From contig JBDROZ010000064.1 of assembly GCA_043809585.1 (NCBI GenBank), positions 1 through 64,000 of the forward strand: a DNA stretch of 64,000 bases, read 5' to 3'. This stretch comes from Candidatus Eiseniibacteriota bacterium (GTDB lineage: Bacteria; Orphanbacterota; Orphanbacteria; Orphanbacterales; Orphanbacteraceae). Shown here in pieces: positions 379 through 24,003 of this stretch; within the stretch, counting starts at the first letter, position 1; every line of letters starts with the position of its first letter. The translations under genes were made by a program, and so were the position numbers. The notes below the pieces were generated by a model. It did no database searches and was not told the origin of the DNA. It saw nothing but the letters and a program-made list of their open reading frames with translations.

Positions 379-627
379 ATGAGAGAGCCGCCGGTCCAGA
401 GAAATCCGACTCCTCCGCCGGAGGAGAAGCACGGCTGCGAGCATTGCCTTTGCTGCGCTTGCGAACGGACTTGCACCCGGTGCCACAACTGCTCGCCCAT
501 GAACAGCCGGTACATCCCCTTGATCGGCTGCAACGACTTCATCGACATGAGGAAGCTCGAGCCCCTCCGTTACATCTACTTCGCCGACCGTTCCGTGGAA
601 TACAAGCTCCATCTGAAGCTCCCCTAG
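379..627 (+). CDS. Small cysteine-rich protein (82 aa, 9 Cys), putative metal-binding
   Basis: GAGGGAGG RBS before ATG; GC-ending codons; CEHCLCCAC-ERTC-TRCHNC cluster; possible TTGACT-N18-TACGCT promoter at 326-355. Confidence 0.75.
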   Translation: MREPPVQRNPTPPPEEKHGCEHCLCCACERTCTRCHNCSPMNSRYIPLIGCNDFIDMRKLEPLRYIYFADRSVEYKLHLKLP

Positions 628-862
628 AACTCGTTTCAGTGTCGCGTCCCGGGAGTGCCTTGCCCATCCGGGGGGGCGATCGTGGTTCCCGGGTTCTACC
701 CCGCACGGATTCGTTCCGAACTGTGCTTTGCGCGGTTCTTTGTGTACCATATGGTTCGCCTTGGGACTTCGGATCCGGGGCCCCACGAGAGACGGTTCCG
801 GCTCAAGCCCGTATTTCCATATGACGAAAAGAGATAATGGAGAGGTCCCGGGGCGGCCCGCC

Positions 863-877
863 TGGCATGCCCCTTGC
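863..877 (+). promoter_or_regulatory. Sigma54 (-24/-12) promoter
   Basis: TGGCATGCCCCTTGC has GG-N10-GC spacing, is close to the TGGCACG-N4-TTGC consensus and lies 32 nt upstream of the kinase ATG. Confidence 0.8.
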
Positions 878-909
878 GGTTTCCTCGGGGTGAGGAGGAG
901 GAGAAGTCG

Positions 910-2292
910 ATGGCCGAAGACGGGAAGTTCCCCTCGATTCCGCGAATCGAGGTGCGCTTCACCCTTGGCCTCGTGCTGATCACCCTCCTCGGAATCAACG
1001 TGGGGGGCTGGGTCTTCTACGGGGAAGCGAGGGAGTACATGGAAGGGCTCTCCAGGAAGCGTCTCGTCACGGTCGCCCAAGCGGTCTCCGCCCAGATCGA
1101 CCGGGACCGGGTGCTCGGGTTCCTCCCCGGCGACGAGGGGGGGGAGGCGTACGAGGAGGAGCGGGACCGCCTGATTCGGCTCAGGGATGAGGCGGAGCTG
1201 GACCGCGTTTTTCTCGTGGCCCCTTACCTGGGGAGCCTCCTCGACACGAGGGGGGAGACCCCCGTGGGAGAGGACGATCCCCACGTCGACATGAACGCGG
1301 AATCGATGGCGCCCCTCTGGGAAGGGCGGCCGGTCGGCCTCCCGGTCTACGAGATCGAGGGGGAGCGGTTCCAGACCGCCTTCGCTCCCGTTCTCGCCGA
1401 GAACGAGCTCCGGGCGGTGGTGGGGGTCGACGCGAGCGCCCGGTTCCTGGCGGACCTCGAGATCCTCCGCCGGGGCCTCTTCGCGACCGCCCTCCTCAGC
1501 CTCGTGATCGCCTCGGGGCTCGGCTGGTTCGTCCACCGGAACACGCGGCGCGTCGTCGCCCTCCAGGGGGAAATCAAGAACGCGGAGAAACTCGCCGCCC
1601 TCGGCACGCTCACCGCCGGACTCGCCCACGAGATCCGGAACCCCCTCGCCATCATTCGCGCTTCGGCGGAACTTCTGGACGAAGAGGAGGGGGAGCCCGG
1701 TGGCGGCCGGGGCTACGGCGCACCGATCATCGAAGAGGTCGACCGGCTCGGCGCCCTCCTGACCCACTTCCTCGAATTCGCGAAACCCTACGGCCGGGGC
1801 GGGCCGGGGCGGGAGGACCTGAACCGGGTGGTCCGGGAGACGACGGAGCGGGCCGAGCCGGAGTTCCGGGAGCGGGGGATCCGACTCGAGCGGCGCATTC
1901 CGGCGGGGGAAACGATGGTGGTGATGGACCTGGGGCGGATCGCCCAGGCCCTCCTCAACCTGCTCTGGAACGCGCGGGACGCGGCGGCCGCCGGGGGAGG
2001 AAAGGTGGAAGTTTCCGTCGCGACCCGCAGGCGCGTTCCCCCCTCGGCGAGGCTCCTGGCGGAGAAGCCGAACCGCCGGGGCTACGCCGAAGTGCGGGTG
2101 GCCGACGACGGCGGGGGGATTCCGGAGGGGATCCGGGACAAGCTCTTCGACCCGTTCTTCACGACGAAGGAGAGGGGAACGGGGCTCGGCTTGTCGATCG
2201 TTCACGGAATCGTGCGGAGTCACGAAGGGTACGTTCTCGTCGAGAACGGCCAGGGCCGCGGAGCCGTGATCGGCTTCGGAATCCCCCGGTAG
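910..2292 (+). CDS. Membrane sensor histidine kinase (NtrB/ZraS-like)
   Basis: Two TM helices flank a periplasmic domain; H-box [10 protein letters not shown]-box [10 protein letters not shown]1 DDGGGI, F-box PFFTTK, G2 GTGLGL. Start moved to ATG 910 after the GAGGAGGAG RBS. Confidence 0.93.
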
Positions 2293-2304
2293 GAGATCGC
2301 AACG

Positions 2305-3687
2305 ATGCGCATTCTTGTCGTCGACGATGAACCGAAAATGCGGGACCTGATTGCGCGGGCTTTGGAGAAGGACGGGAACCAGGTGGATCTCGCCGCCTCG
2401 CTCGCGGAGTCCCGGGGGCGGATCGCGGCGGACACCTACGACCTCGTCGTCACGGACCTGAAAATGGAGACCGACGAGGCGGGTCTCGGCGTACTCGAAG
2501 CGGCGAAGGAAAAAGACCCGTCCACGGAGGTGATCCTGGTGACCGGGTTCGCGACGATCGAGGTGGGAGCCCGGGCGATCGACCGGGGGGCCTACGACTA
2601 TCTGATCAAGCCGTTGAAGATCGGCGATCTCCGGGGGCGCGTCGCGGCGATCGCCCGGAAACGGACCGATCCCGCGGGGGCCGCGGCGGCCGAGAGGCCC
2701 CCCGAGGGCCCGGTCGTCTTCGACGACATCGTGGTCGGCGGCAGCGCGGGCATGCAGAAGGTGTACGAGACGCTCCCCCGGGTGGTGGGCTCGTCTTCCA
2801 CGATCTTGATCCGGGGGGAGAGCGGGACGGGCAAGGAGCTCATCGCCCGGGCCATCCACCGCGCGAGCCCGCGCAAGAACGGACCCTTCGTGGAGGTGAA
2901 CTGCGCGGCCCTTGTCGACTCCCTCCTCGAGAGCGAACTCTTCGGCATCGAGAAGCGGGTCGCCACCGGCGTCGACCGGCGGGAGGGGAAATTCGAAACC
3001 GCGTCGGGAGGGACCCTCTTCCTGGACGAAGTGGGGGACATGAGCCTCGCCACCCAGGCGAAGGTCCTCCGGGCGATGCAGGAGAGGAAGATCGAGCGGG
3101 TCGGCGGCCGCGAGGCGGTCCCCGTGGACGTCCGCATCGTGGCGGCCACGAACGTCGATCTCGAGGAAGCAGTCCGGGAAGGCCGTTTCCGGGAGGACCT
3201 CTTCTACCGCCTGAACGTGATCACCATCGCGATCCCGCCGCTCCGCGAGAGGATCGAGGACATCCCCCACTTCGTGGAGCACTTCCTCGGCAAGTTCAAC
3301 CGGGCTTTCTCCCGCCGCATCGACGGAGTCGATCCGGCGGCGATGGAGGCCCTCGGCCGCTATTCGTGGCCGGGGAACGTACGGGAGCTCGAGAACGCCA
3401 TGGAGCGGGCCTTCCTGATGAGCCGGGACTCGGTGATTCGCCCCGAAGACCTCCCGGAGAAGATCGGAGGGGCCGCGCCCGCCGCGCGGGGCGGCTATCT
3501 GTTCACCCTGCCCGAGTCGAGCATCCGGCTCGAAGAGGTGGAGCGGGACTTCATCGTCCAGGCCCTCGAGAGAACGGGCGGCAACCGGACCCGGGCGGCG
3601 AAGCTGCTCGGCCTGACGCGGCGGATCCTCGGCTACCGGATGGAGAAGTACAAGATCGAGGGGGACGAGGACCCCAAGAACCGATGA
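2305..3687 (+). CDS. NtrC-family response regulator (REC-AAA+-HTH) with atypical RVATGV loop
   Basis: REC domain (VVDDE, VTDLKM), Walker A GESGTGKE, ESELFG, Walker B FLDEVG, WPGNVREL and a Fis-type HTH. Confidence 0.93.
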   Translation: MRILVVDDEPKMRDLIARALEKDGNQVDLAASLAESRGRIAADTYDLVVTDLKMETDEAGLGVLEAAKEKDPSTEVILVTGFATIEVGARAIDRGAYDYLIKPLKIGDLRGRVAAIARKRTDPAGAAAAERPPEGPVVFDDIVVGGSAGMQKVYETLPRVVGSSSTILIRGESGTGKELIARAIHRASPRKNGPFVEVNCAALVDSLLESELFGIEKRVATGVDRREGKFETASGGTLFLDEVGDMSLATQAKVLRAMQERKIERVGGREAVPVDVRIVAATNVDLEEAVREGRFREDLFYRLNVITIAIPPLRERIEDIPHFVEHFLGKFNRAFSRRIDGVDPAAMEALGRYSWPGNVRELENAMERAFLMSRDSVIRPEDLPEKIGGAAPAARGGYLFTLPESSIRLEEVERDFIVQALERTGGNRTRAAKLLGLTRRILGYRMEKYKIEGDEDPKNR

Positions 3688-4512
3688 GGCGGACCACCAT
3701 GAACGGGCGACGGGCCATCACGATCTCGCTCCTCGGGCTGGCGCTGCTCTCCCTCCCCGCGGGGGTGGCGGGGGGGGGCGACTCCCCGGAGGACCGGATC
3801 CTCGCGTCCCTGCCTATGGACGACATGACACCCCGGGAGCGGGAGCGGGTCGGCGAGGCGGTCCGGAGGCTTTACCGCCTCCACGCCGCGGCCGGCGACG
3901 GCGGGGGGGGGGGAAGTGGGGGCGTACGTAAAAGTGGTGGAAGAGCTTGCCCGGTACCTGAAAAGGGAAACCGTCGAAGAGAGCCGAAGGCTGCTCGGCG
4001 AGGCCGCCCTCGCTTTCGAGCGGGTCGACCGCCGGTGGATCGACCGCGCCTTCGTGATCACGGGCGAAAACGACTTCCCCGTGAACGAACAGAGCCTCGG
4101 GATCCTCCGGGACCAATCCGAGGCGCTCCGCGCGGTGGGCACCCTCCTGAAAGAGGAACAGGGGATCCTGGCCCGCCAGAAGGGCCTCGCCTCCGGGGCA
4201 GAGCGTCGCTATCGGGACATCCTCCGTCTGCAGCAGGAGGCCCATCGCGCGTTCGATTCCATCGGACACGAGGGCATCAAGTCCGCGATCCGCTGGCTCG
4301 TGGACGAAATCGACCGGACCCACGCGAGCGTCGTCCGCCCGGCCCACGACCGGCAAGAGAGGCTTCTCGCCCTCTTCGATCAGGTGGTGCGATCGACCGG
4401 TTCGAGTTCGGCGGGGGCCCTGGTCAAGGACTTTCGCGAGTACAGCTCCAAGATCCGCGTCATCGAGCAGAGGGTCCATCGGGCCGCCGGCCGCGCGGCG
4501 GGTTCGGAGTGA
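3684..4512 (+). pseudogene. Exported alpha-helical protein split by a frameshift in a G11 tract (3903-3913)
   Basis: ATG overlaps the regulator stop; signal peptide AITISLLGLALLSLPAGVA; protein-like sequence continues in the +1 frame (ORF 3916..4512). G10 would give one ~275-aa ORF. Confidence 0.7.
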
Positions 4513-4513
4513 C

Positions 4514-4542
4514 TTGACGCGCACCGCTCTGCCGCCTACCAT
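4514..4542 (+). promoter_or_regulatory. Sigma70-type promoter
   Basis: TTGACG-N17-TACCAT directly upstream of the small membrane protein and TPR gene. Confidence 0.6.
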
Positions 4543-4568
4543 CGGGGAGAAACGGGGAGGGAAGATCC

Positions 4569-4730
4569 GTGGCGAAACCGAAGAAGAAGGAGAAGTCGGG
4601 CCTGCCCGTGGACGCCCCGCGGAAGGGGCCGAGGGATGACGGGGACGACATCGATTTTCCGACCGTGGTCTGGTCTCTCGTGATCCTGGCGGTTCTCGTG
4701 CTCGTCCACCGTCTCGTCTGGGGCGGGTAA
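4569..4730 (+). CDS. Small single-pass membrane protein (53 aa; absent from the ORF track)
   Basis: GGGGAGG RBS, GTG start, MAKPKKKEKSG...FPTVVWSLVILAVLVLVHRLVWGG*; stops 10 nt before the next ATG. Confidence 0.65.
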   Translation: MAKPKKKEKSGLPVDAPRKGPRDDGDDIDFPTVVWSLVILAVLVLVHRLVWGG

Positions 4731-4740
4731 GGCTGCGCTC

Positions 4741-5478
4741 ATGCACTCGAGTCGATCGGCGGCGTTCTCTCTCGCCCTGGCCATTCTGGTCGCAGCGGCC
4801 TGCTCCCGGGGTCCCTCCTTCGAGGAGCGGAGGGCGGAGGGCATCGCGGCGTTCCAGGAGGGCCGGTTCGACAAGGCGATCATCACGCTCGACGCCCTCT
4901 CCCTGGAAAACCCGCGGGACTTCGAGACCCGGTACTACCTCGCCCGCTCTCTCGAATCGGACCAGCGACTCCCCGCCGCCCTCCGGGAGTGGGACGACGT
5001 CCTCCGGCTCCGTCCCTCCCTGGTGGAGGGCCACTACCGGCGCGGGAACGTCCTCGCCATCATGAAGGATACGCAGGGTGCGATCGACGCCTGGAACCGG
5101 GCGCTCGAAATCGATCCCACGTTTCACAAGGCCTATTTCAATCTGGCCAACGCCTATGAGGAAATGGAGATGTGGGACGAGGCGGTTCGGCACTACCTGC
5201 TGACCATCGAGGCCGATTCGAGTTTCGTTCCCGGCTATCTCAACCTCGCGCTTCTGCTCCAGCGGGCCGAGCAGTGGGACTTCGCCCTCGACATGTTCGA
5301 CCGCGCCATCGAACTCGATCCTGACTACGCGCCCCCTTACATGAATCGCATCAACATCCTCGCCGCCACGGGCCGCGGGGAGGAGGCGACCGCCCGCGTC
5401 GACGAGCTCCTCGCCATGGAGAACCTCGACTCTACCCTGGCCGACTCCCTCCGCGCCCTGCGGGGACGGATCGAGTAG
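4741..5478 (+). CDS. TPR-repeat lipoprotein
   Basis: Lipobox-like ILVAAAC; repeated TPR patterns (ALEIDP..AYFNLA, AIELDPDY). Confidence 0.88.
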   Translation: MHSSRSAAFSLALAILVAAACSRGPSFEERRAEGIAAFQEGRFDKAIITLDALSLENPRDFETRYYLARSLESDQRLPAALREWDDVLRLRPSLVEGHYRRGNVLAIMKDTQGAIDAWNRALEIDPTFHKAYFNLANAYEEMEMWDEAVRHYLLTIEADSSFVPGYLNLALLLQRAEQWDFALDMFDRAIELDPDYAPPYMNRINILAATGRGEEATARVDELLAMENLDSTLADSLRALRGRIE

Positions 5479-5593
5479 AAGCCTCGGATCGTCTCTCAAC
5501 TCGCTCTTGTTCTCGAATCCCCTCCTATTCTCCGTCCACCTCGTTTCCGCCGGACCGAGGACCGAACACGACGGAAGGAGGGGCCCGCGTGCC

Positions 5594-5638
5594 GCGATCC
5601 GAGATCGCAGTAGGAGATTTGTGCATAATCCAGGCTAG
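5594..5638 (+). repeat. Copy 2 of the ~46-bp direct repeat; its CTAG end contains the TAG stop of the convergent Omp85-fusion gene
   Basis: Matches 234-279. Confidence 0.8.
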
Positions 5639-8415
5639 AAGTCTCTTCCGATTCGAAAATAGCCGGAGAGAGGACCGAGGTTCCGGCGTCCGTCGCTCAT
5701 CTGCGGGAAGTCGAGCATGAGTTGGAAGGGCCCGAAGAACGCGCGGATTCCGGGGCCGTAGGCGATGCGGGGACGCTCTTCGCCCGCGAAGTACCCCGCG
5801 TCGGCGAAGAGCACGCCCCGGATGCCGCCGAAGGTGATCGGGAAGGGCCATCCGAGACGGAGGGCATCGACGAGGGGGAAGCGGACTTCCGCACTCTGCA
5901 CGGCGTAACCCCGTTCCCGGTCGGTGAGGTCGGGAAACCCGCGGACCAGGCTCCGGAAACCTAAACCGAAGACCGGCCCCCCCGCCCCGGCCGAACGGCC
6001 GGCGACGGTCCGCGACGCGATCACCACCCGTTCCCCCGCAGGCTCGTAGAACCGGGCGTCGACCCGGGCCCACCCGCCGCCTTCCCCTTCCATGACGAGG
6101 GGCTCCAGGGAGAGGCGGAGGCGGCGGCCTCGGCGCGGGCCGTGCCACGACCACCGCGCGTTGTCGTGCACATAGGCGATCTCGGCGCCGGCGAAGAGAG
6201 AGGTCTCCCCCTCGCCCAGATCGCGGAGCACTTCGTCGTTTCCTTCGCCGATCCGCCCCCCCCACTCGAAACGCCGGTACCGGTCGAGAGGGTAGAGCAG
6301 CCGGAACCGAAGACCCCGGTAAAGCGCCTCCCGTCTCACCCCGTTCCAATCGACGAGGGCCCGCCGGAACTGGAAGACCGATGCTTCGTACTCGGTCCGC
6401 CCCACACGGTTCTTGTACGCGGCGAACAGGTCGGAATTCCCCATGGAACCGTAGATCCCGAAGGCGACCTCCATGCGATGGCCTCCGAGGAGATCGGAGA
6501 AGTAGATCGAAGAACCCGAGGAGAAGCCTCCGTCCGGTCCCGCCCCCGCGCCGGCCGCGCGAACGTCCGCCGTGAGCCGAGCCCGGTACGGGAGAACCCG
6601 GTAGGGGGGGAGGTAACCGGCGCCCTCCGGCGGCGTGCCCGAGGCGAGGGCGAGGGCCGGACCCATGAGATCCCCCGGGGGGAGCGAGGGATCGCCCGGC
6701 GCGTAGCCGGGATCGGGCATGACGTGCACGGTCCAGCTCTGTCGCCGGAACGAGACGAAAGAAAAGTCGCCGCTCTCCCGGCTCCAGGAGAGGACGGGGG
6801 ATTCGGACAGGAGGCCGGCCGCTCCCCCCTCGAGCCGCGTGATTCGCCGGACCGACGCGGCGGCGAGGTCGTGAAGGTAGACGTCCGGCGTTCCCGCCCG
6901 GTCCGAGACGAAGAGGATCCGGTTCCCCTCGGGGGACCAGACGGGGGAGTGGTTGTTCCCTTCCTGGCCGGGCAGAACGGTCCAGCGGCCGGTCCGCAAG
7001 TCGAGCACGCCGATCCGGAGGGTGCGATCGGGAGGGGCCGCCTCGCCGTCGACGATCCGGTCCGTGGCGCAGACCACCCGATTCCCGTCCGGCGACCAAT
7101 CGGGATGAATGTACAGGAACCGGTCGGCGGTCAAGGGGGCGGCCTCTCCGGTCTTCCCGTCCACACGGTAGAGATCGGTCCGCCCGTCGGCGAGTCCCGC
7201 GGCGATCAGCCGACTTCCGTCGGGCGACCACGACACGCCCCGGATCTCCTCGAATCCGGGGCGGAGGGTGCGGATTCGGTCTCCCGACCGGGCGTCCAGG
7301 ACGTGGATCACGTCGCCCCCCGAACCCTGGGCCGGGAGAGCGACGAGGCCGCCGTCCGGCGACCAGCGGCCGCCGCCGTGATAAGGCCGGAGGGAAACGA
7401 GGTCCCCCGAGCCCCCCTCGCGGGCGAGGAGCCGGCCCTTCCCCCCCCCCGCTTTCACGGGATCGCGGTAGAGGCCGAATCCGCCCTCCCGGTCGGAAAG
7501 GACGAGCAGCTCGGCGCCGTCCGGAGAGAGGTCGGCCCCCACATTCACACGACCCTCCGCGTCCACCGGCTCGGCCACGCGGCCCGCCCGATTGAGGCGG
7601 ACCACCTCGGGCAGATACTCCCGGCGAAGGGCGTCCGCCCATTCCTCCGAGAGCTCCTCGTGCTCCCTGCCGAACACCATGCGCATCGCCTTTTCCGCGT
7701 CCCGGGAGAGAGCGAGGGCGCGCAGGAAATCCCCCGCCGAAGACTCGCCGCGCTCCGAAGCGAGCCAGGCCCAGGCGGCCTGGCCGAAGCGGTAGATGCG
7801 CACGTCCCCCATCCGCGAAAGGCCGGAGAACGACGGGGGCGGGCCGTCGAGCAGAGAGTCCCTGAGCCACATCCGGGTGAAGGGATCGACCCCTCCCCGC
7901 GAGAGGTACTCCGCCATCCCCTCGATCATCCAGAGGGGAACCGTGGTCCCGTTCAGTCCGGCCGTTCCCTCGGGATCGAGGATGTCGATCTGGAAGGCGT
8001 GAACCAGCTCGTGGTGAAGGACGTGGCGGAATTCCTCCCGGGATCCGGGATAGGGGAGGAAGACGCGACGCTTCAGGAACTCCGTGATCCCGCCGGTCCC
8101 CTCGTCGATCACGTAGGGGGTGATCGGCGTGCTCTGGAACTCCGGATGGGACCCGTAAAGGACGACGGGCACGGGCCGGGCGATCTCGTGATCGAGGCGG
8201 GCCGAAAGATCCTCGTAGATCGCTTCGGCGAGAGCGACCGTTTCGAGCGCCAGGTCTTCCTCCTCCCGGTAGAAGTGGATCCGGAAGTGGGCGGTCTCGA
8301 GGACCCTCCATTCCCGGTCATGATAGCGGACCTTGTTCTGGCCAAAGTACGACGCTTTCGCCGGCGGGGCGGCCGCGAGGCAGAAGAGGACCGTGAGAAG
8401 TGCGGTTCGCTTCAT
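5635..8415 (-). CDS. Gluzincin peptidase (MA-like) + TolB/PD40 beta-propeller + Omp85/BamA-type barrel fusion
   Basis: Signal peptide MKRTALLTVLFCLAAAPPAKA then FGQNKV; HELVH and WMIEGMAEY; repeated WSPDG; Omp85-like VRGF, SAEVRFP, LFADAG; C-terminal FRIGRDF. Start moved to ATG 8415. Confidence 0.85.
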   Translation of the reverse strand: MKRTALLTVLFCLAAAPPAKASYFGQNKVRYHDREWRVLETAHFRIHFYREEEDLALETVALAEAIYEDLSARLDHEIARPVPVVLYGSHPEFQSTPITPYVIDEGTGGITEFLKRRVFLPYPGSREEFRHVLHHELVHAFQIDILDPEGTAGLNGTTVPLWMIEGMAEYLSRGGVDPFTRMWLRDSLLDGPPPSFSGLSRMGDVRIYRFGQAAWAWLASERGESSAGDFLRALALSRDAEKAMRMVFGREHEELSEEWADALRREYLPEVVRLNRAGRVAEPVDAEGRVNVGADLSPDGAELLVLSDREGGFGLYRDPVKAGGGKGRLLAREGGSGDLVSLRPYHGGGRWSPDGGLVALPAQGSGGDVIHVLDARSGDRIRTLRPGFEEIRGVSWSPDGSRLIAAGLADGRTDLYRVDGKTGEAAPLTADRFLYIHPDWSPDGNRVVCATDRIVDGEAAPPDRTLRIGVLDLRTGRWTVLPGQEGNNHSPVWSPEGNRILFVSDRAGTPDVYLHDLAAASVRRITRLEGGAAGLLSESPVLSWSRESGDFSFVSFRRQSWTVHVMPDPGYAPGDPSLPPGDLMGPALALASGTPPEGAGYLPPYRVLPYRARLTADVRAAGAGAGPDGGFSSGSSIYFSDLLGGHRMEVAFGIYGSMGNSDLFAAYKNRVGRTEYEASVFQFRRALVDWNGVRREALYRGLRFRLLYPLDRYRRFEWGGRIGEGNDEVLRDLGEGETSLFAGAEIAYVHDNARWSWHGPRRGRRLRLSLEPLVMEGEGGGWARVDARFYEPAGERVVIASRTVAGRSAGAGGPVFGLGFRSLVRGFPDLTDRERGYAVQSAEVRFPLVDALRLGWPFPITFGGIRGVLFADAGYFAGEERPRIAYGPGIRAFFGPFQLMLDFPQMSDGRRNLGPLSGYFRIGRDF

Positions 8416-8655
8416 GGGATGGGGTGCCGGGAGTGGAGATCTCAATCGACTCGAGAAGTTCATTATACCGGATCTCTTGCGCCATCTCAAGAACGGAAAG
8501 ACGAGAAGTCGTTTTCATCGGCAACGGGAGCGAGGCAGAGGGGGCGTGAGGGGGCGAGGGACCTCTCTCGCCTCCTCGCGGTTTGTTCCGGGCGGTCCCG
8601 GCGGGGCCGATCGCCCGACCCGCCGCGGGGAGGTCCGGTGGCGGGGAAGGTGGCG

Positions 8656-8671
8656 GGGCATGGCCCTTGCA
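8656..8671 (+). promoter_or_regulatory. Sigma54 (-24/-12) promoter
   Basis: GGGCATGGCCCTTGCA (GG-N10-GC), followed by a GGAGGAGG RBS and ATG 8694. Confidence 0.6.
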
Positions 8672-8693
8672 CCGGAGGAGGGGAGGAGGACCG

Positions 8694-9683
8694 ATGGGAG
8701 ATCCCGTGACGATCATCAGTGGCGATCCCGGTTTCCGGCTCGTCCTCGAGGAAGCGGACCGGGTGGCGCCGACCCCGGTCCCGGTTCTTCTCGAAGGGGA
8801 GTCGGGGACGGGTAAGGAGCTCGTCGCCCTCCGGATCCACGAGCGGAGCGACCGTTCGGACCGGCCCTTTTCGGCGGTCAACTGCGCGGCCCTCTGTGAG
8901 ACCCTCGCCGAGAGCGAGCTGTTCGGCCACGTGGAAGGGGCATTCACCGGCGCCGTGAGGGACCGGAAGGGGATCTTCGAGGAGGCCGGAGGGGGAACCC
9001 TGTTCCTCGATGAGATCGGGGACCTCTCCCCGTCGATCCAGGCGAAGCTTCTCCGGGTCTTGCAGGAGGGAGTGGTGCGGCGCGTCGGTGAGTCGATCCC
9101 CCGGCCGGTCCGGTTCCGGCTCCTGGCGGCCAGCCACAGGGATCTCACGAAGGAAAAGGACGAGGGAAGGTTCCGGGAGGACCTGTTCTACCGCGTGCAC
9201 GTCGTCCGTCTGCGCATTCCGCCCCTGCGGGAGCGGGAAGGGGACATCCCCCTTCTGGTGGGACGGCTCCTTCCCCGCCTGGCCCGTCTCTACGGCAAGC
9301 GGATCGCGGGCGTCCGGGTGGGGGTCACCCGAATTCTCGAGCGCTACGCCTGGCCGGGCAACGTCAGGGAACTCGAGAACGAACTGAAGCGTCTCGTCGC
9401 CCTCGCGGAAGAGGACGGCTGGATCGAGCGCCACCATCTCTCCGAGACGATCCGCACGGAAACCTCGGAACCGAATTGGGAGCCGGTAACCCTCCAGGAG
9501 AAGATCGACCGGCTGGAACGCTCCGAGATACTCCGTATGCTCGATCGCAGTCAGGGGAACAAGACTCGAGCCGCCCGGGAACTCGGTCTCTCCCGGCAAG
9601 GTCTCAAGAACAAACTCGCCCGCCACGGGCTCGGGGAAGAAGGATATGAGAAAAGCAACGAGGTAATCTCTGTAGAGCGTTGA
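8694..9683 (+). CDS. Sigma54-dependent activator lacking an N-terminal regulatory domain (PspF-like architecture)
   Basis: Begins directly at the AAA+ domain; GESGTGKE, intact GAFTGA, FLDEIG, WPGNVREL, C-terminal HTH. Confidence 0.9.
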   Translation: MGDPVTIISGDPGFRLVLEEADRVAPTPVPVLLEGESGTGKELVALRIHERSDRSDRPFSAVNCAALCETLAESELFGHVEGAFTGAVRDRKGIFEEAGGGTLFLDEIGDLSPSIQAKLLRVLQEGVVRRVGESIPRPVRFRLLAASHRDLTKEKDEGRFREDLFYRVHVVRLRIPPLREREGDIPLLVGRLLPRLARLYGKRIAGVRVGVTRILERYAWPGNVRELENELKRLVALAEEDGWIERHHLSETIRTETSEPNWEPVTLQEKIDRLERSEILRMLDRSQGNKTRAARELGLSRQGLKNKLARHGLGEEGYEKSNEVISVER

Positions 9684-22608: not shown

Positions 22609-22824
22609 GAATGATAGATCCCCGCCCGGAGAGCGAGACCCCGGACTTCGCACCTTGATTCCGCTCCGTTGCAAAAGGCCAGTAGCCTCCGGATCGCCGC
22701 GGGGCGGCGCCTGACAACTCTTTCGCGAACAATCTGTTGCGCCTGAGGTCCCTTTCCGCTTTGCTGGTACGACTCTTGCGGAGTTGGAATCGGCGGTCGG
22801 TTCATTCGAGGGAGAACGGGGTCC

Positions 22825-24003
22825 ATGTCGCTCTACGCCGCGGAAACGCACGCCCGGACATCAAGGGAAGAAGTGCTCCTCTCCCGCCTTTTCGGCACTC
22901 TCGACCTGCTCGACCGGGATGCCTACCTCGGCGGCCTGCTTCGAGAAGCCTCGGTCGACATCGCCTCCGGCGATCTCCCGTCCGCCCAGATCCAGTTCTG
23001 GCCCGAGCTCGGGACCTGCCGGCCCGATGTGGTGATCGAGAGCGATTCGCTTCTCCTCTTCGTCGTCGGACGGGGGCGGAACGAGATCGATGCCGATGCA
23101 CTCCTGCTCCTCGCGGAGCGGGGTTGGAAATTCTCCCCACGGTTCAACCTTCTCGTGATTACGGACGGCAACGATTCGCCTCCGGAGCTCGAGACCATGG
23201 CGACACGGTTTCCGCAAAAGAAGGAACCGCCCCTCCGCTGGATCTCCTGGTCCTCGGTTTACCGGGTTCTCCACCGGCGGCTCCGGGAAACCGGCGCCGG
23301 GCCGCCGACGCGGGAGGTGCTCCAGGACCTGCTCGGTCTCCTCGCCGCGGAGGGGCTTGCCCCGTTCGTCGGCTTCGATCCGTCCGTGCTGCGCGCCTAC
23401 CGGGAGTCGCTGCCCGCTTTCGACCGCCTCCACGGGTCGGCCCGCCTCTTCGTCTCGGATCTCGAGGCGCGGCTCCAGGCGGCGGGGATCCGGCGAATCT
23501 CGATGAGAGGGGAGGGGGACGGCGACCTGTCCGCCCAGGCGCCCCGGGAGGTGGACCTCGACTTCGTCGACGAATCATGGAATCCGGGCATCGTCTCCGT
23601 GGGGGGGCTCTTCGTGCACGTCGATTACATGCTCGGCGAAGTGCGGGCCGGTTTCCGGGCGAATCTCGCCGACTCCTCCGCGAAGGCGCTGCTCGTCGAG
23701 GGGCGGAGCCGGATCGCCGAGGTGTTTCGGGAGAACGAAGAGGTCTTCATCCGCATGACGGGGGAAGAGGCTTCCCCGGTGCCGGGACGGGACCCGTCCC
23801 TGCTCGCCCGCCTCGAAACCAGAAACGGCGCGGGAAGGCTCGAGCGGGTCGAGCTCCTTTCCACCTTCGACGGGTCCGAGGTCGACGTGACCGAACGAGT
23901 GGTCGGAGCCCTCGTCGCCTTCCGGGACATCGCCGTGAACGTCCCCCTTCTTCCTATCCACCGCATCGACGGCGAGAGCCCCTTCGTCGTTGCCGGCCAA
24001 TAA
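22825..24003 (+). CDS. Hypothetical protein with a degenerate PD-(D/E)XK-like N-terminal domain
   Basis: GGGAG RBS; FWP..RPDVVIE..LLLFV and WISW motifs, but no E-x-K. Confidence 0.6.
   Translation: MSLYAAETHARTSREEVLLSRLFGTLDLLDRDAYLGGLLREASVDIASGDLPSAQIQFWPELGTCRPDVVIESDSLLLFVVGRGRNEIDADALLLLAERGWKFSPRFNLLVITDGNDSPPELETMATRFPQKKEPPLRWISWSSVYRVLHRRLRETGAGPPTREVLQDLLGLLAAEGLAPFVGFDPSVLRAYRESLPAFDRLHGSARLFVSDLEARLQAAGIRRISMRGEGDGDLSAQAPREVDLDFVDESWNPGIVSVGGLFVHVDYMLGEVRAGFRANLADSSAKALLVEGRSRIAEVFRENEEVFIRMTGEEASPVPGRDPSLLARLETRNGAGRLERVELLSTFDGSEVDVTERVVGALVAFRDIAVNVPLLPIHRIDGESPFVVAGQ

Follow-up and report, generated by a model that had tools for sequence, protein, structure and literature searches.

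A conserved loop variant in place of GAFTGA in an NtrC-family response regulator of a Candidatus Eiseniibacteriota bacterium, and its relation to a neighbouring sensor-less activator

Bacterial enhancer-binding proteins (bEBPs) that act in pairs, or that depart from the usual set of domains, are known from several systems. HrpR and HrpS of Pseudomonas syringae are co-transcribed paralogs, both of them sensor-less and both canonical; in the FleQ/FleT pair of Rhodobacter sphaeroides, FleT is devoid of a DNA-binding domain; PspF is a sensor-less bEBP which is controlled in trans by PspA; and NtrX, TyrR, HupR and the NtrC of R. capsulatus are atypical, σ54-independent proteins in which the loop is lost or shortened. 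We have analysed a stretch of 64,000 nucleotides (nt) from a Candidatus Eiseniibacteriota bacterium (assembly GCA_043809585.1, contig JBDROZ010000064.1), hereafter the window, which carries near its start two bEBP genes: an NtrC-family response regulator that reads RVATGV at the place of GAFTGA, and a short activator that has an intact GAFTGA and no sensor domain. A preliminary description of this DNA had proposed that the two may cooperate as a split σ54 activator or, alternatively, that RVATGV is a functional lineage variant. Our sequence comparisons assign the regulator to a distinct, old and widespread loop class of bEBPs, in which [I/V]-E-x-x-(V/T/A)-A-T-x-V stands for H-E-x-G-A-F-T-G-A, and it is this loop class, rather than the pairing, that is the interesting part of the locus.

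The genes around the regulator resemble systems of the ZraSR/ZraP and AtoSC type, in which a kinase and a REC-AAA+-HTH regulator are autoregulated from a σ54 promoter, with an exported accessory protein (ZraP); they differ from these in the loop, which is other than GAFTGA, in the exported protein, for which no family is detectable, and in reaching no equivalog cut-off. The window resembles HrpR/HrpS and FleQ/FleT in that two bEBP genes are found close together, one of which is sensor-less. However, unlike HrpR/HrpS, the two genes have separate promoters, the regulator has a REC domain and the pair is unlinked in a related genome, and, unlike FleQ/FleT, both proteins have an HTH_8 domain. The regulator is without GAFTGA, as are NtrX, TyrR, HupR and R. 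capsulatus NtrC, but it differs from proteins of the NtrX/TyrR type in that it has an alternative motif conserved across phyla beside σ54 promoters, misses the NtrX equivalog cut-off and has a -24/-12 promoter of its own.

The regulator is encoded at 2305..3687 on the forward strand (460 residues, aa) and is composed of REC, Sigma54_activat, AAA_lid_14 and HTH_8 domains. Its loop reads ELFGIEKRVATGVD, with RVATGV at aa 218-223 (nt 2956-2973), as the preliminary description had stated, and HMMER alignment places this hexapeptide onto the GAFTGA of Aquifex NtrC4 (4L4U) and of ZraR (1OJL); the tip of loop L1 carries neither GAFTGA nor one of the tolerated F/Y and T/S variants. The Sigma54_activat domain (PF00158) scores 218.6 bits in the regulator versus 215.9 bits in the short activator. 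In 15 aligned orthologs (58–75% identity) RVATGV is invariant except for its first residue: E211-L-F-G-I-E216 and V219-A-T-G-V-D224 do not vary, the mean column identity being 68%, and the same holds for the ATPase set (Walker A GESGTGKE, Walker B DE, the sensor residues, the arginines R294/R296/R302 and R360) and for the phospho-acceptor set D51/T80/K105 of REC. Because ELFGIE and VATGVD are invariant in these orthologs, the loop appears to be under constraint, and it looks like design, not decay. Metagenome contigs queried with the ortholog alignment returned no orthologs among the matches listed (at least 80, at 38–48% identity), the query peptides GESGTGKE and PF[VI][ED]VNCA being generic. 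The best NCBIfam matches of the regulator, AtoC, NtrC and ZraR, all remain under cut-off, and an equivalog cut-off was reached by none of the 12 proteins compared. The genome of the window (G000; 4.24 Mb, 97.5% complete, the window being its contig C64) has one rpoN, that is, one Sigma54_DBD gene, and 25 PF00158 genes. With rpoN in the genome, and a -24/-12 promoter and an upstream enhancer-like site at the presumed target of the regulator, the setting is that of a bEBP.

The loop is by no means restricted to these orthologs. Among the regulator and its best 119 homologs, 31 have xVATxV, 87 have loops of canonical type and 2 could not be parsed; no intermediates were seen, and the carriers of xVATxV are all the closest ones. 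Between the hexapeptide and Walker B, all 37 VAT rows have a spacing of 12 residues and all 35 others one of 13. An unbiased search with the AAA+ domain against 1.84 billion representatives (50% identity), from which the top 150 were taken, yielded 21 xVATxV loops and 17 close variants (mostly GTATGV), all with a spacing of 12, and 107 of the 109 canonical loops among these representatives have a spacing of 13–14. This signature of the VAT class, a loop-to-Walker B segment shorter by one residue, is defined here and is absent from the literature. When the DNA pattern for E-L-F-G-I-E-x-x-V-A-T-x-V was scanned in species genomes, at least 119 stretches matched, from at least 8 phyla as judged by record title, which among the matches listed are Acidobacteriota, Thermodesulfobacteriota, Myxococcota, Nitrospirota, Nitrospinota, Bdellovibrionota, Bacteroidota and Pseudomonadota. 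In a tree computed without the loop columns the VAT rows cluster, with 8 changes versus 24.5 in shuffles and none of 500 shuffles as low, and no single VAT clade is resolved; one origin of the class is better argued from the shared indel than from the tree. The genome of the window itself carries two further VAT-class genes, with the loops NVATSV and GVATDV, and no bEBP was found among the neighbouring genes examined around these two.

We have thus considered what lies beside genes of this class, using 80 VAT loci fetched with their flanks (median DNA 20 kb; full ±10 kb in 43). A second bEBP gene is absent from 75 of the 80, as judged by tblastn over the DNA of each locus, and a GAFTGA-type neighbour occurs only in L057 (from G006, a genome of the window's own family), L068 and L071. 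Strong -24/-12 sites, on the other hand, number 88 in 79 of the loci, versus 27–44 in five block shuffles; 23 of the 88 fall into one 500-nt bin just past the stop of the VAT gene and on the gene's own strand, and in 36 of the 79 loci a site is found at the stop codon, often followed by a hydrophobic open reading frame (ORF) of 50–58 aa. A literature search on the loop motif found a single paper that mentions it, Kazakov et al. 2015 (PMC4641369), in the accessible part of which DVUA0100 of D. vulgaris Hildenborough, a bearer of GVATGV, is inferred to control σ54 promoters of type III secretion operons. Compared by loop motif, DVUA0100 has the same xVATGV, its gene lies within or beside σ54 promoters, and in that part of the paper it is judged functional by comparative genomics only; it is a one-component protein with an uncharacterised N-terminal region, whereas the regulator of the window is a REC protein with a cognate kinase and an arginine at loop position 1 (PMC4641369).

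A recurrent arrangement was observed among the VAT loci of Acidobacteriota and others. Here the gene of a GAF-AAA+-HTH activator whose loop reads GVATGV has a strong TGGCA-N7-TTGC site within about 80–300 nt behind it, and then a hydrophobic ORF of 50–58 aa (L043, L051, L055, L059, L070, L071, L075, L077, L080, L086, L088, L097, L099, L100, L109, L110, L112, L114, L116 and L122). The site is located just past the bEBP stop, near 10.7–11.1 kb in full loci. The small ORFs have family-specific C-termini (…YLLQLYLxF, …SLQLFLRF, …LAWTLxRVLxQL) and no Pfam family, and they could possibly represent an undescribed σ54-controlled small-membrane-peptide system.

Within the window, the regulator belongs to an operon that we term module A and that begins with a sensor histidine kinase (910..2292, forward strand) with two transmembrane segments and the Pfam domains HisKA and HATPase_c. 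The locus was compared across 10 genomes of the phylum, nine of one family (G000 and eight others) and G009, the single genome of a second family; genes in the window were called by frame choice guided by GC content at third codon positions (GC3) together with Pfam. The kinase has orthologs with 36–65% identity in all 10 loci. A σ54 type -24/-12 promoter element, TGGCATGCCCCTTGCG, is located at 863..878 (forward strand) and ends 31 nt before the kinase ATG at 910, and all 10 orthologous loci have a TGGCAy-N5-TTGC element 5' of the kinase gene, with its GG and GC conserved, 24–56 nt from the start in 9 of them and 245 nt in G003, so that the σ54 promoter noticed earlier for this operon is borne out. 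A relaxed -24/-12 pattern has 3 matches in the window versus 0.75 expected, a number reached by 6 of 100 shuffles, and the support for these elements comes from their conservation across relatives rather than from the match count.

Upstream of this promoter, at 742..759 (forward strand) and 104 nt from the -24 element, there is a palindromic enhancer-like site, GTGTACCATATGGTTCGC, with the family consensus TGTACC-N4-GGTACG. Allowing at most 2 mismatches to the core GTACCNNNNGGTAC, the palindrome is found at the same place in 8 of the 10 orthologous loci, the versions of G004 and G009 being more divergent; its position is about 104–131 nt upstream of the kinase promoter, and the locus alignment evidences a conserved A-rich block between the two. 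The whole genome contains 55 sites with at most 2 mismatches to the palindrome 16-mer, 3 of which have a -24/-12 site scoring at least 12.5 within 260 nt, and that of the window is the strongest. With palindrome and -24/-12 element both conserved, the layout of module A is therefore the textbook one of an operon that depends on an enhancer and regulates itself.

Three further observations concern the palindrome and its surroundings. Several contig ends of the genome have a copy of the 16-mer TGTACCTATTGGTACG, or of its complement, about 50 nt away from them (C14:50, C47:51, C54:51, C56:219, C84:76261, C112:22736, C115:55557, C117:314); these copies probably show where a multi-copy mobile element ends, and the likeness of the 16-mer to the palindrome of the kinase operon is possibly due to chance. 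An 82-aa Cys-rich ORF of no family lies upstream of the palindrome (window 379-627), and most aligned orthologous loci preserve the DNA of its C-terminal end (…EYKLHLKLP). Directly upstream of the Cys-rich ORF and the kinase operon, at least three family genomes have a bEBP of about 1040 aa (G001:C80:33711-34625, G005:C13:212670-213584 and, in G006, L057:4107-7214), whose loop in G006 is GAFTDA; the contig of the window starts too late to show this gene, and a 1046-aa frame with GAFTDA at a contig end (C32:620-1120) may be its counterpart.

The third gene of the operon (3699..4512, forward strand) encodes an exported helical protein with an N-terminal hydrophobic, signal-like segment. Its orthologs are single ORFs of 270–286 aa that start directly past the stop of the regulator gene; in the window the gene is split into two frames at a run of 11 G (3890-3915), the frame being broken near 3903. 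Parts of the window were found in three DNA runs of one study, and since run X1 yields an independent contig that is one base shorter at 3903 (depth 4), the break is probably a homopolymer assembly error, not the mark of a pseudogene. No family was found for this protein in Pfam (best E 0.009) or NCBIfam, and a protein-atlas search gave a best score of 0.77, with a pTM of 0.22.

The second group of genes, module B, starts with a putative σ70-like promoter at 4514..4542 (forward strand; TTGACG-17-TACCAT), whose TTGAC and -10-like block are conserved in a 9-locus alignment. It precedes the gene of a 53-aa tail-anchored small membrane protein (4569..4730, forward strand), which has a basic N-terminus, the motif D-[DE]-I-D-F-P-T, a transmembrane segment and the ending HRL[IV]WGG. 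This previously unannotated protein belongs to no Pfam family, and all 10 genomes encode it, always directly before the gene of a lipoprotein (4741..5478, forward strand) with Pfam TPR families and a lipobox-like N-terminus, which is syntenic in the 9 family loci and adjoins the short activator in G009. A secreted PD40/beta-propeller protein follows on the reverse strand (5635..8415), its frame given by GC3 and Pfam PD40; a frame at 5525-8311 was rejected on the same grounds. This gene is a variable insertion between the modules: a reverse-strand match occurs at the same place in G001, G005 and G002, a similar gap without match in G006, and in G003, G004, G007 and G008 the insertion is absent and the short activator comes directly after the TPR gene.

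The short activator (8694..9683, forward strand; 329 aa) consists of AAA+, lid and HTH_8, with GAFTGA at aa 82-87 (nt 8937-8954), and in Pfam its Sigma54_activat domain begins about 9 aa past the ATG, with no N-terminal domain. Among the 25 bEBP genes of the genome, it alone has a stretch of under 131 codons from the upstream stop to AAA+. A σ54 type -24/-12 element, GGGCATGGCCCTTGCA, is located at 8656..8671 (forward strand) and ends 22 nt before the ATG at 8694, a start which is supported by the fact that the element sits inside a longer, TTG-started frame. All 9 family loci have the corresponding yGGCAyG-N4-yTGC 22–30 nt 5' of the short activator, and it is found again in G009. The intact motif, the missing regulatory domain and the σ54-like promoter attributed to this gene in the preliminary description are in this way all confirmed. 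The protein resembles PspF in having AAA+ and HTH only and in its place beside small membrane and envelope proteins; it differs from PspF in that its own promoter is of the σ54 type and in its score against the pspF NCBIfam model (242.6 versus a cut-off of 443.55). No match to the PspA family (PF04012, PspA_IM30) was found in the genome of the window, which is 97.5% complete.

Some observations on σ54 promoters relate to the genome as a whole. There are 146 -24/-12 sites scoring at least 13 on both strands of its 4.24 Mb. A strong site is located at most 4 kb from 13 of the 25 bEBP genes, and many of these sites, on the strand of the gene itself, follow the start of the AAA+ match by about 1.09 kb, which puts them just behind the bEBP gene, a common layout in this genome. 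In the window, a third -24/-12-like site, TGGTACGACTCTTGCG (22765-22780), is found 45 nt before a 392-aa ORF with no Pfam family (22825-24003), and represents a possible further σ54 target.

In respect to the relation between the two activators, each of the 10 genomes of the phylum has both genes, and all 9 genomes of one family carry them as neighbours, a comparison that covers only two families. They have separate promoters, with 3–4 genes between them, and each encodes a full HTH_8, the recognition helices being different. A distinct scenario is found in G009, where the operon of kinase, regulator and exported protein is located at about 292 kb of contig C28 and the group of the short activator near 18–20 kb, 270 kb apart. 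The order in this group is small membrane protein (48% identity to that of the window over 48 aa), TPR gene (27% over 230 aa), a TGGCACGTCGCCTGCT element and a 344-aa GAFTGA activator, whose best match in the genome of the window is, marginally, the short activator (251 versus 248 bits). Since neighbours and promoter are conserved, this activator is likely orthologous to the short activator of the window. The arrangement indicates, therefore, that the short activator is constantly accompanied by the small membrane protein and the TPR lipoprotein rather than by the regulator. By eye, a GCGCAC..GTGCGC palindrome can be seen upstream of the short activator in G009, loosely similar to the palindrome of the kinase operon and with a different spacing.

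We consider it moderately probable that the locus holds two separate signalling modules side by side, and that the regulator activates σ54 by itself and autoregulates via the palindrome. In module A, the σ54 promoter and the palindromic enhancer-like site would drive the kinase, the regulator and the exported helical protein; the phosphorylated regulator would assemble on the palindrome and activate σ54 RNA polymerase alone, its variant loop serving as a working alternative contact to σ54, and the kinase and the exported protein may constitute an envelope-facing sensor, in analogy to ZraPSR. In module B, the σ70-like promoter would drive the small membrane protein and the TPR lipoprotein, which are followed by the short activator under its own σ54 promoter; the latter may be an independent, PspF-like output of this module, controlled by its expression level and/or in trans. 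Any link between the modules would more likely be regulatory, through a shared envelope signal or a cascade, than a shared hexamer. Between the alternatives of the preliminary description, the conserved loop, the widespread class with its indel and the σ54 promoters without GAFTGA neighbours thus speak for a functional lineage variant, and the split pair, though not refuted, finds no support as the leading model.

Several points weigh against this explanation. The role of the regulator as binder of the palindrome is presumed, and palindrome, k-mer and position weight matrix (PWM) scans found no enhancer for the promoter of the short activator. A Phe-less loop that works alone contradicts the textbook, because in PspF p-benzoyl-phenylalanine (pBpa) at any position of GAFTGA abolished open-complex formation, and F85 and T86 are stated to be the contacts to σ54 Region I in the accessible part of that study (PMC3467059). 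Literature support for σ54 activation by the VAT class is one computational regulon inference, as given in the accessible part of the paper (PMC4641369). The loci that display the promoter association are mostly of one GAF-AAA+-HTH subfamily, so that the 36 loci with a site at the stop codon are not independent, although this subfamily differs from that of the window regulator. It is also possible that a canonical partner acts in trans from elsewhere in the genome, because in five VAT-gene genomes (identified via L060, L050, L095, L121 and L072) there are 13, 45, 8, 9 and 29 PF00158 genes, respectively, and none of the five has a VAT-class gene as its sole bEBP. Finally, both modules are present in all 10 genomes and adjacent in 9, as a functional link would also predict.

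Such a link could consist of a cascade or cross-regulation, in which one activator drives the σ54 promoter of the other, for example with the phosphorylated regulator switching on a constitutively active short activator which then acts on output genes; we regard this as rather unlikely. In its favour, the σ54 promoter of the sensor-less short activator is conserved in all 10 genomes including G009, so some bEBP must switch it on, and the adjacency in one family fits, as does the suggestion of a cascade or a partner protein for domain-less activators in the accessible part of Kazakov et al. (PMC4641369). However, the palindrome of the kinase operon is not found upstream of the short activator promoter in the 9 family genomes: its PWM scores 17–27 at the kinase promoters versus -2.6 to 4.8 at the latter, no better than random windows. 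Palindrome and k-mer scans detected no motif common to both promoter regions, and in G009 the two regions share no 13-mer except for one match with 2 mismatches. The short activator could also switch itself on, or be switched on by any of the remaining 23 bEBPs.

The loss of Phe together with the deletion of one residue in L1 could also mean that the regulator is σ54-independent, as are NtrX, TyrR and R. capsulatus NtrC, and acts as a repressor or σ70 activator, canonical activators then serving the σ54 promoters of the locus. NtrX is in fact among its better matches (NCBIfam 350.8 bits versus a cut-off of 600; PDB 5M7N), but the chain of 5M7N is 3 residues shorter over the loop segment and scores 38.5 bits versus 71 for ZraR, and the loop of the regulator is strongly conserved and nearly full length rather than decayed. 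Its ATPase and arginine-finger residues are intact, its own operon has the textbook enhancer and -24/-12 layout, and its class is enriched beside σ54 promoters, all of which makes σ54 independence unlikely.

We find it distinctly unlikely that the two proteins form a split activator, in which the regulator, unable to engage σ54, would provide phosphorylation control and DNA binding and the sensor-less GAFTGA protein would remodel σ54 within a mixed hexamer. HrpR/HrpS and FleQ/FleT offer precedents, the loop of the regulator has lost the Phe and also has Arg for the first Gly, and of the 25 bEBPs the short protein alone has no regulatory domain. The two genes are kept in all 10 genomes and, despite the variable insertion, stay adjacent in the 9 of one family. 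Moreover, when an inactive L1 variant was mixed into PspF hexamers, about 55% of the activity remained, so that not every subunit needs a working loop (PMC3467059), and a mixed hexamer is mechanistically conceivable. Yet genes of the VAT class mostly have no canonical neighbour (75 of 80 loci) and still lie beside σ54 promoters, and in G009 the genes are 270 kb apart, with the short activator remaining beside the small membrane protein and the TPR lipoprotein. Each protein has a complete HTH_8, with its own recognition helix, and a separate promoter, the palindrome is not shared, and the σ70-like unit and often a divergent gene lie between the two. In addition, the two further VAT-class genes of the genome would require the same partner, and the third bEBP of about 1040 aa, located just upstream in at least G001, G005 and G006, makes the choice of a partner arbitrary. 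It is more doubtful still that, in this Eisenbacteria family, two modules that were formerly apart, as they still are in G009, came together such that the regulator, for phosphorylation control and enhancer binding, and the short activator, for σ54 contact, became a division-of-labour hexamer. If true, the split pair would be a new way to build an activator, which the present evidence does not favour.

The Phe of GAFTGA is regarded as indispensable if the hydrolysis of ATP is to be coupled to the remodelling of σ54, and the class to which the regulator is assigned has an alanine there. This alanine, together with the one-residue deletion and the adjoining σ54 promoters, points to a second structural solution for engaging Region I of σ54. 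Annotators are warned, in this respect, that the motif alone gives no ground for calling such proteins σ54-independent. The locus described here, a simple two-component regulator with its own promoter and enhancer-like site, represents a defined test case for how the VAT class may work.

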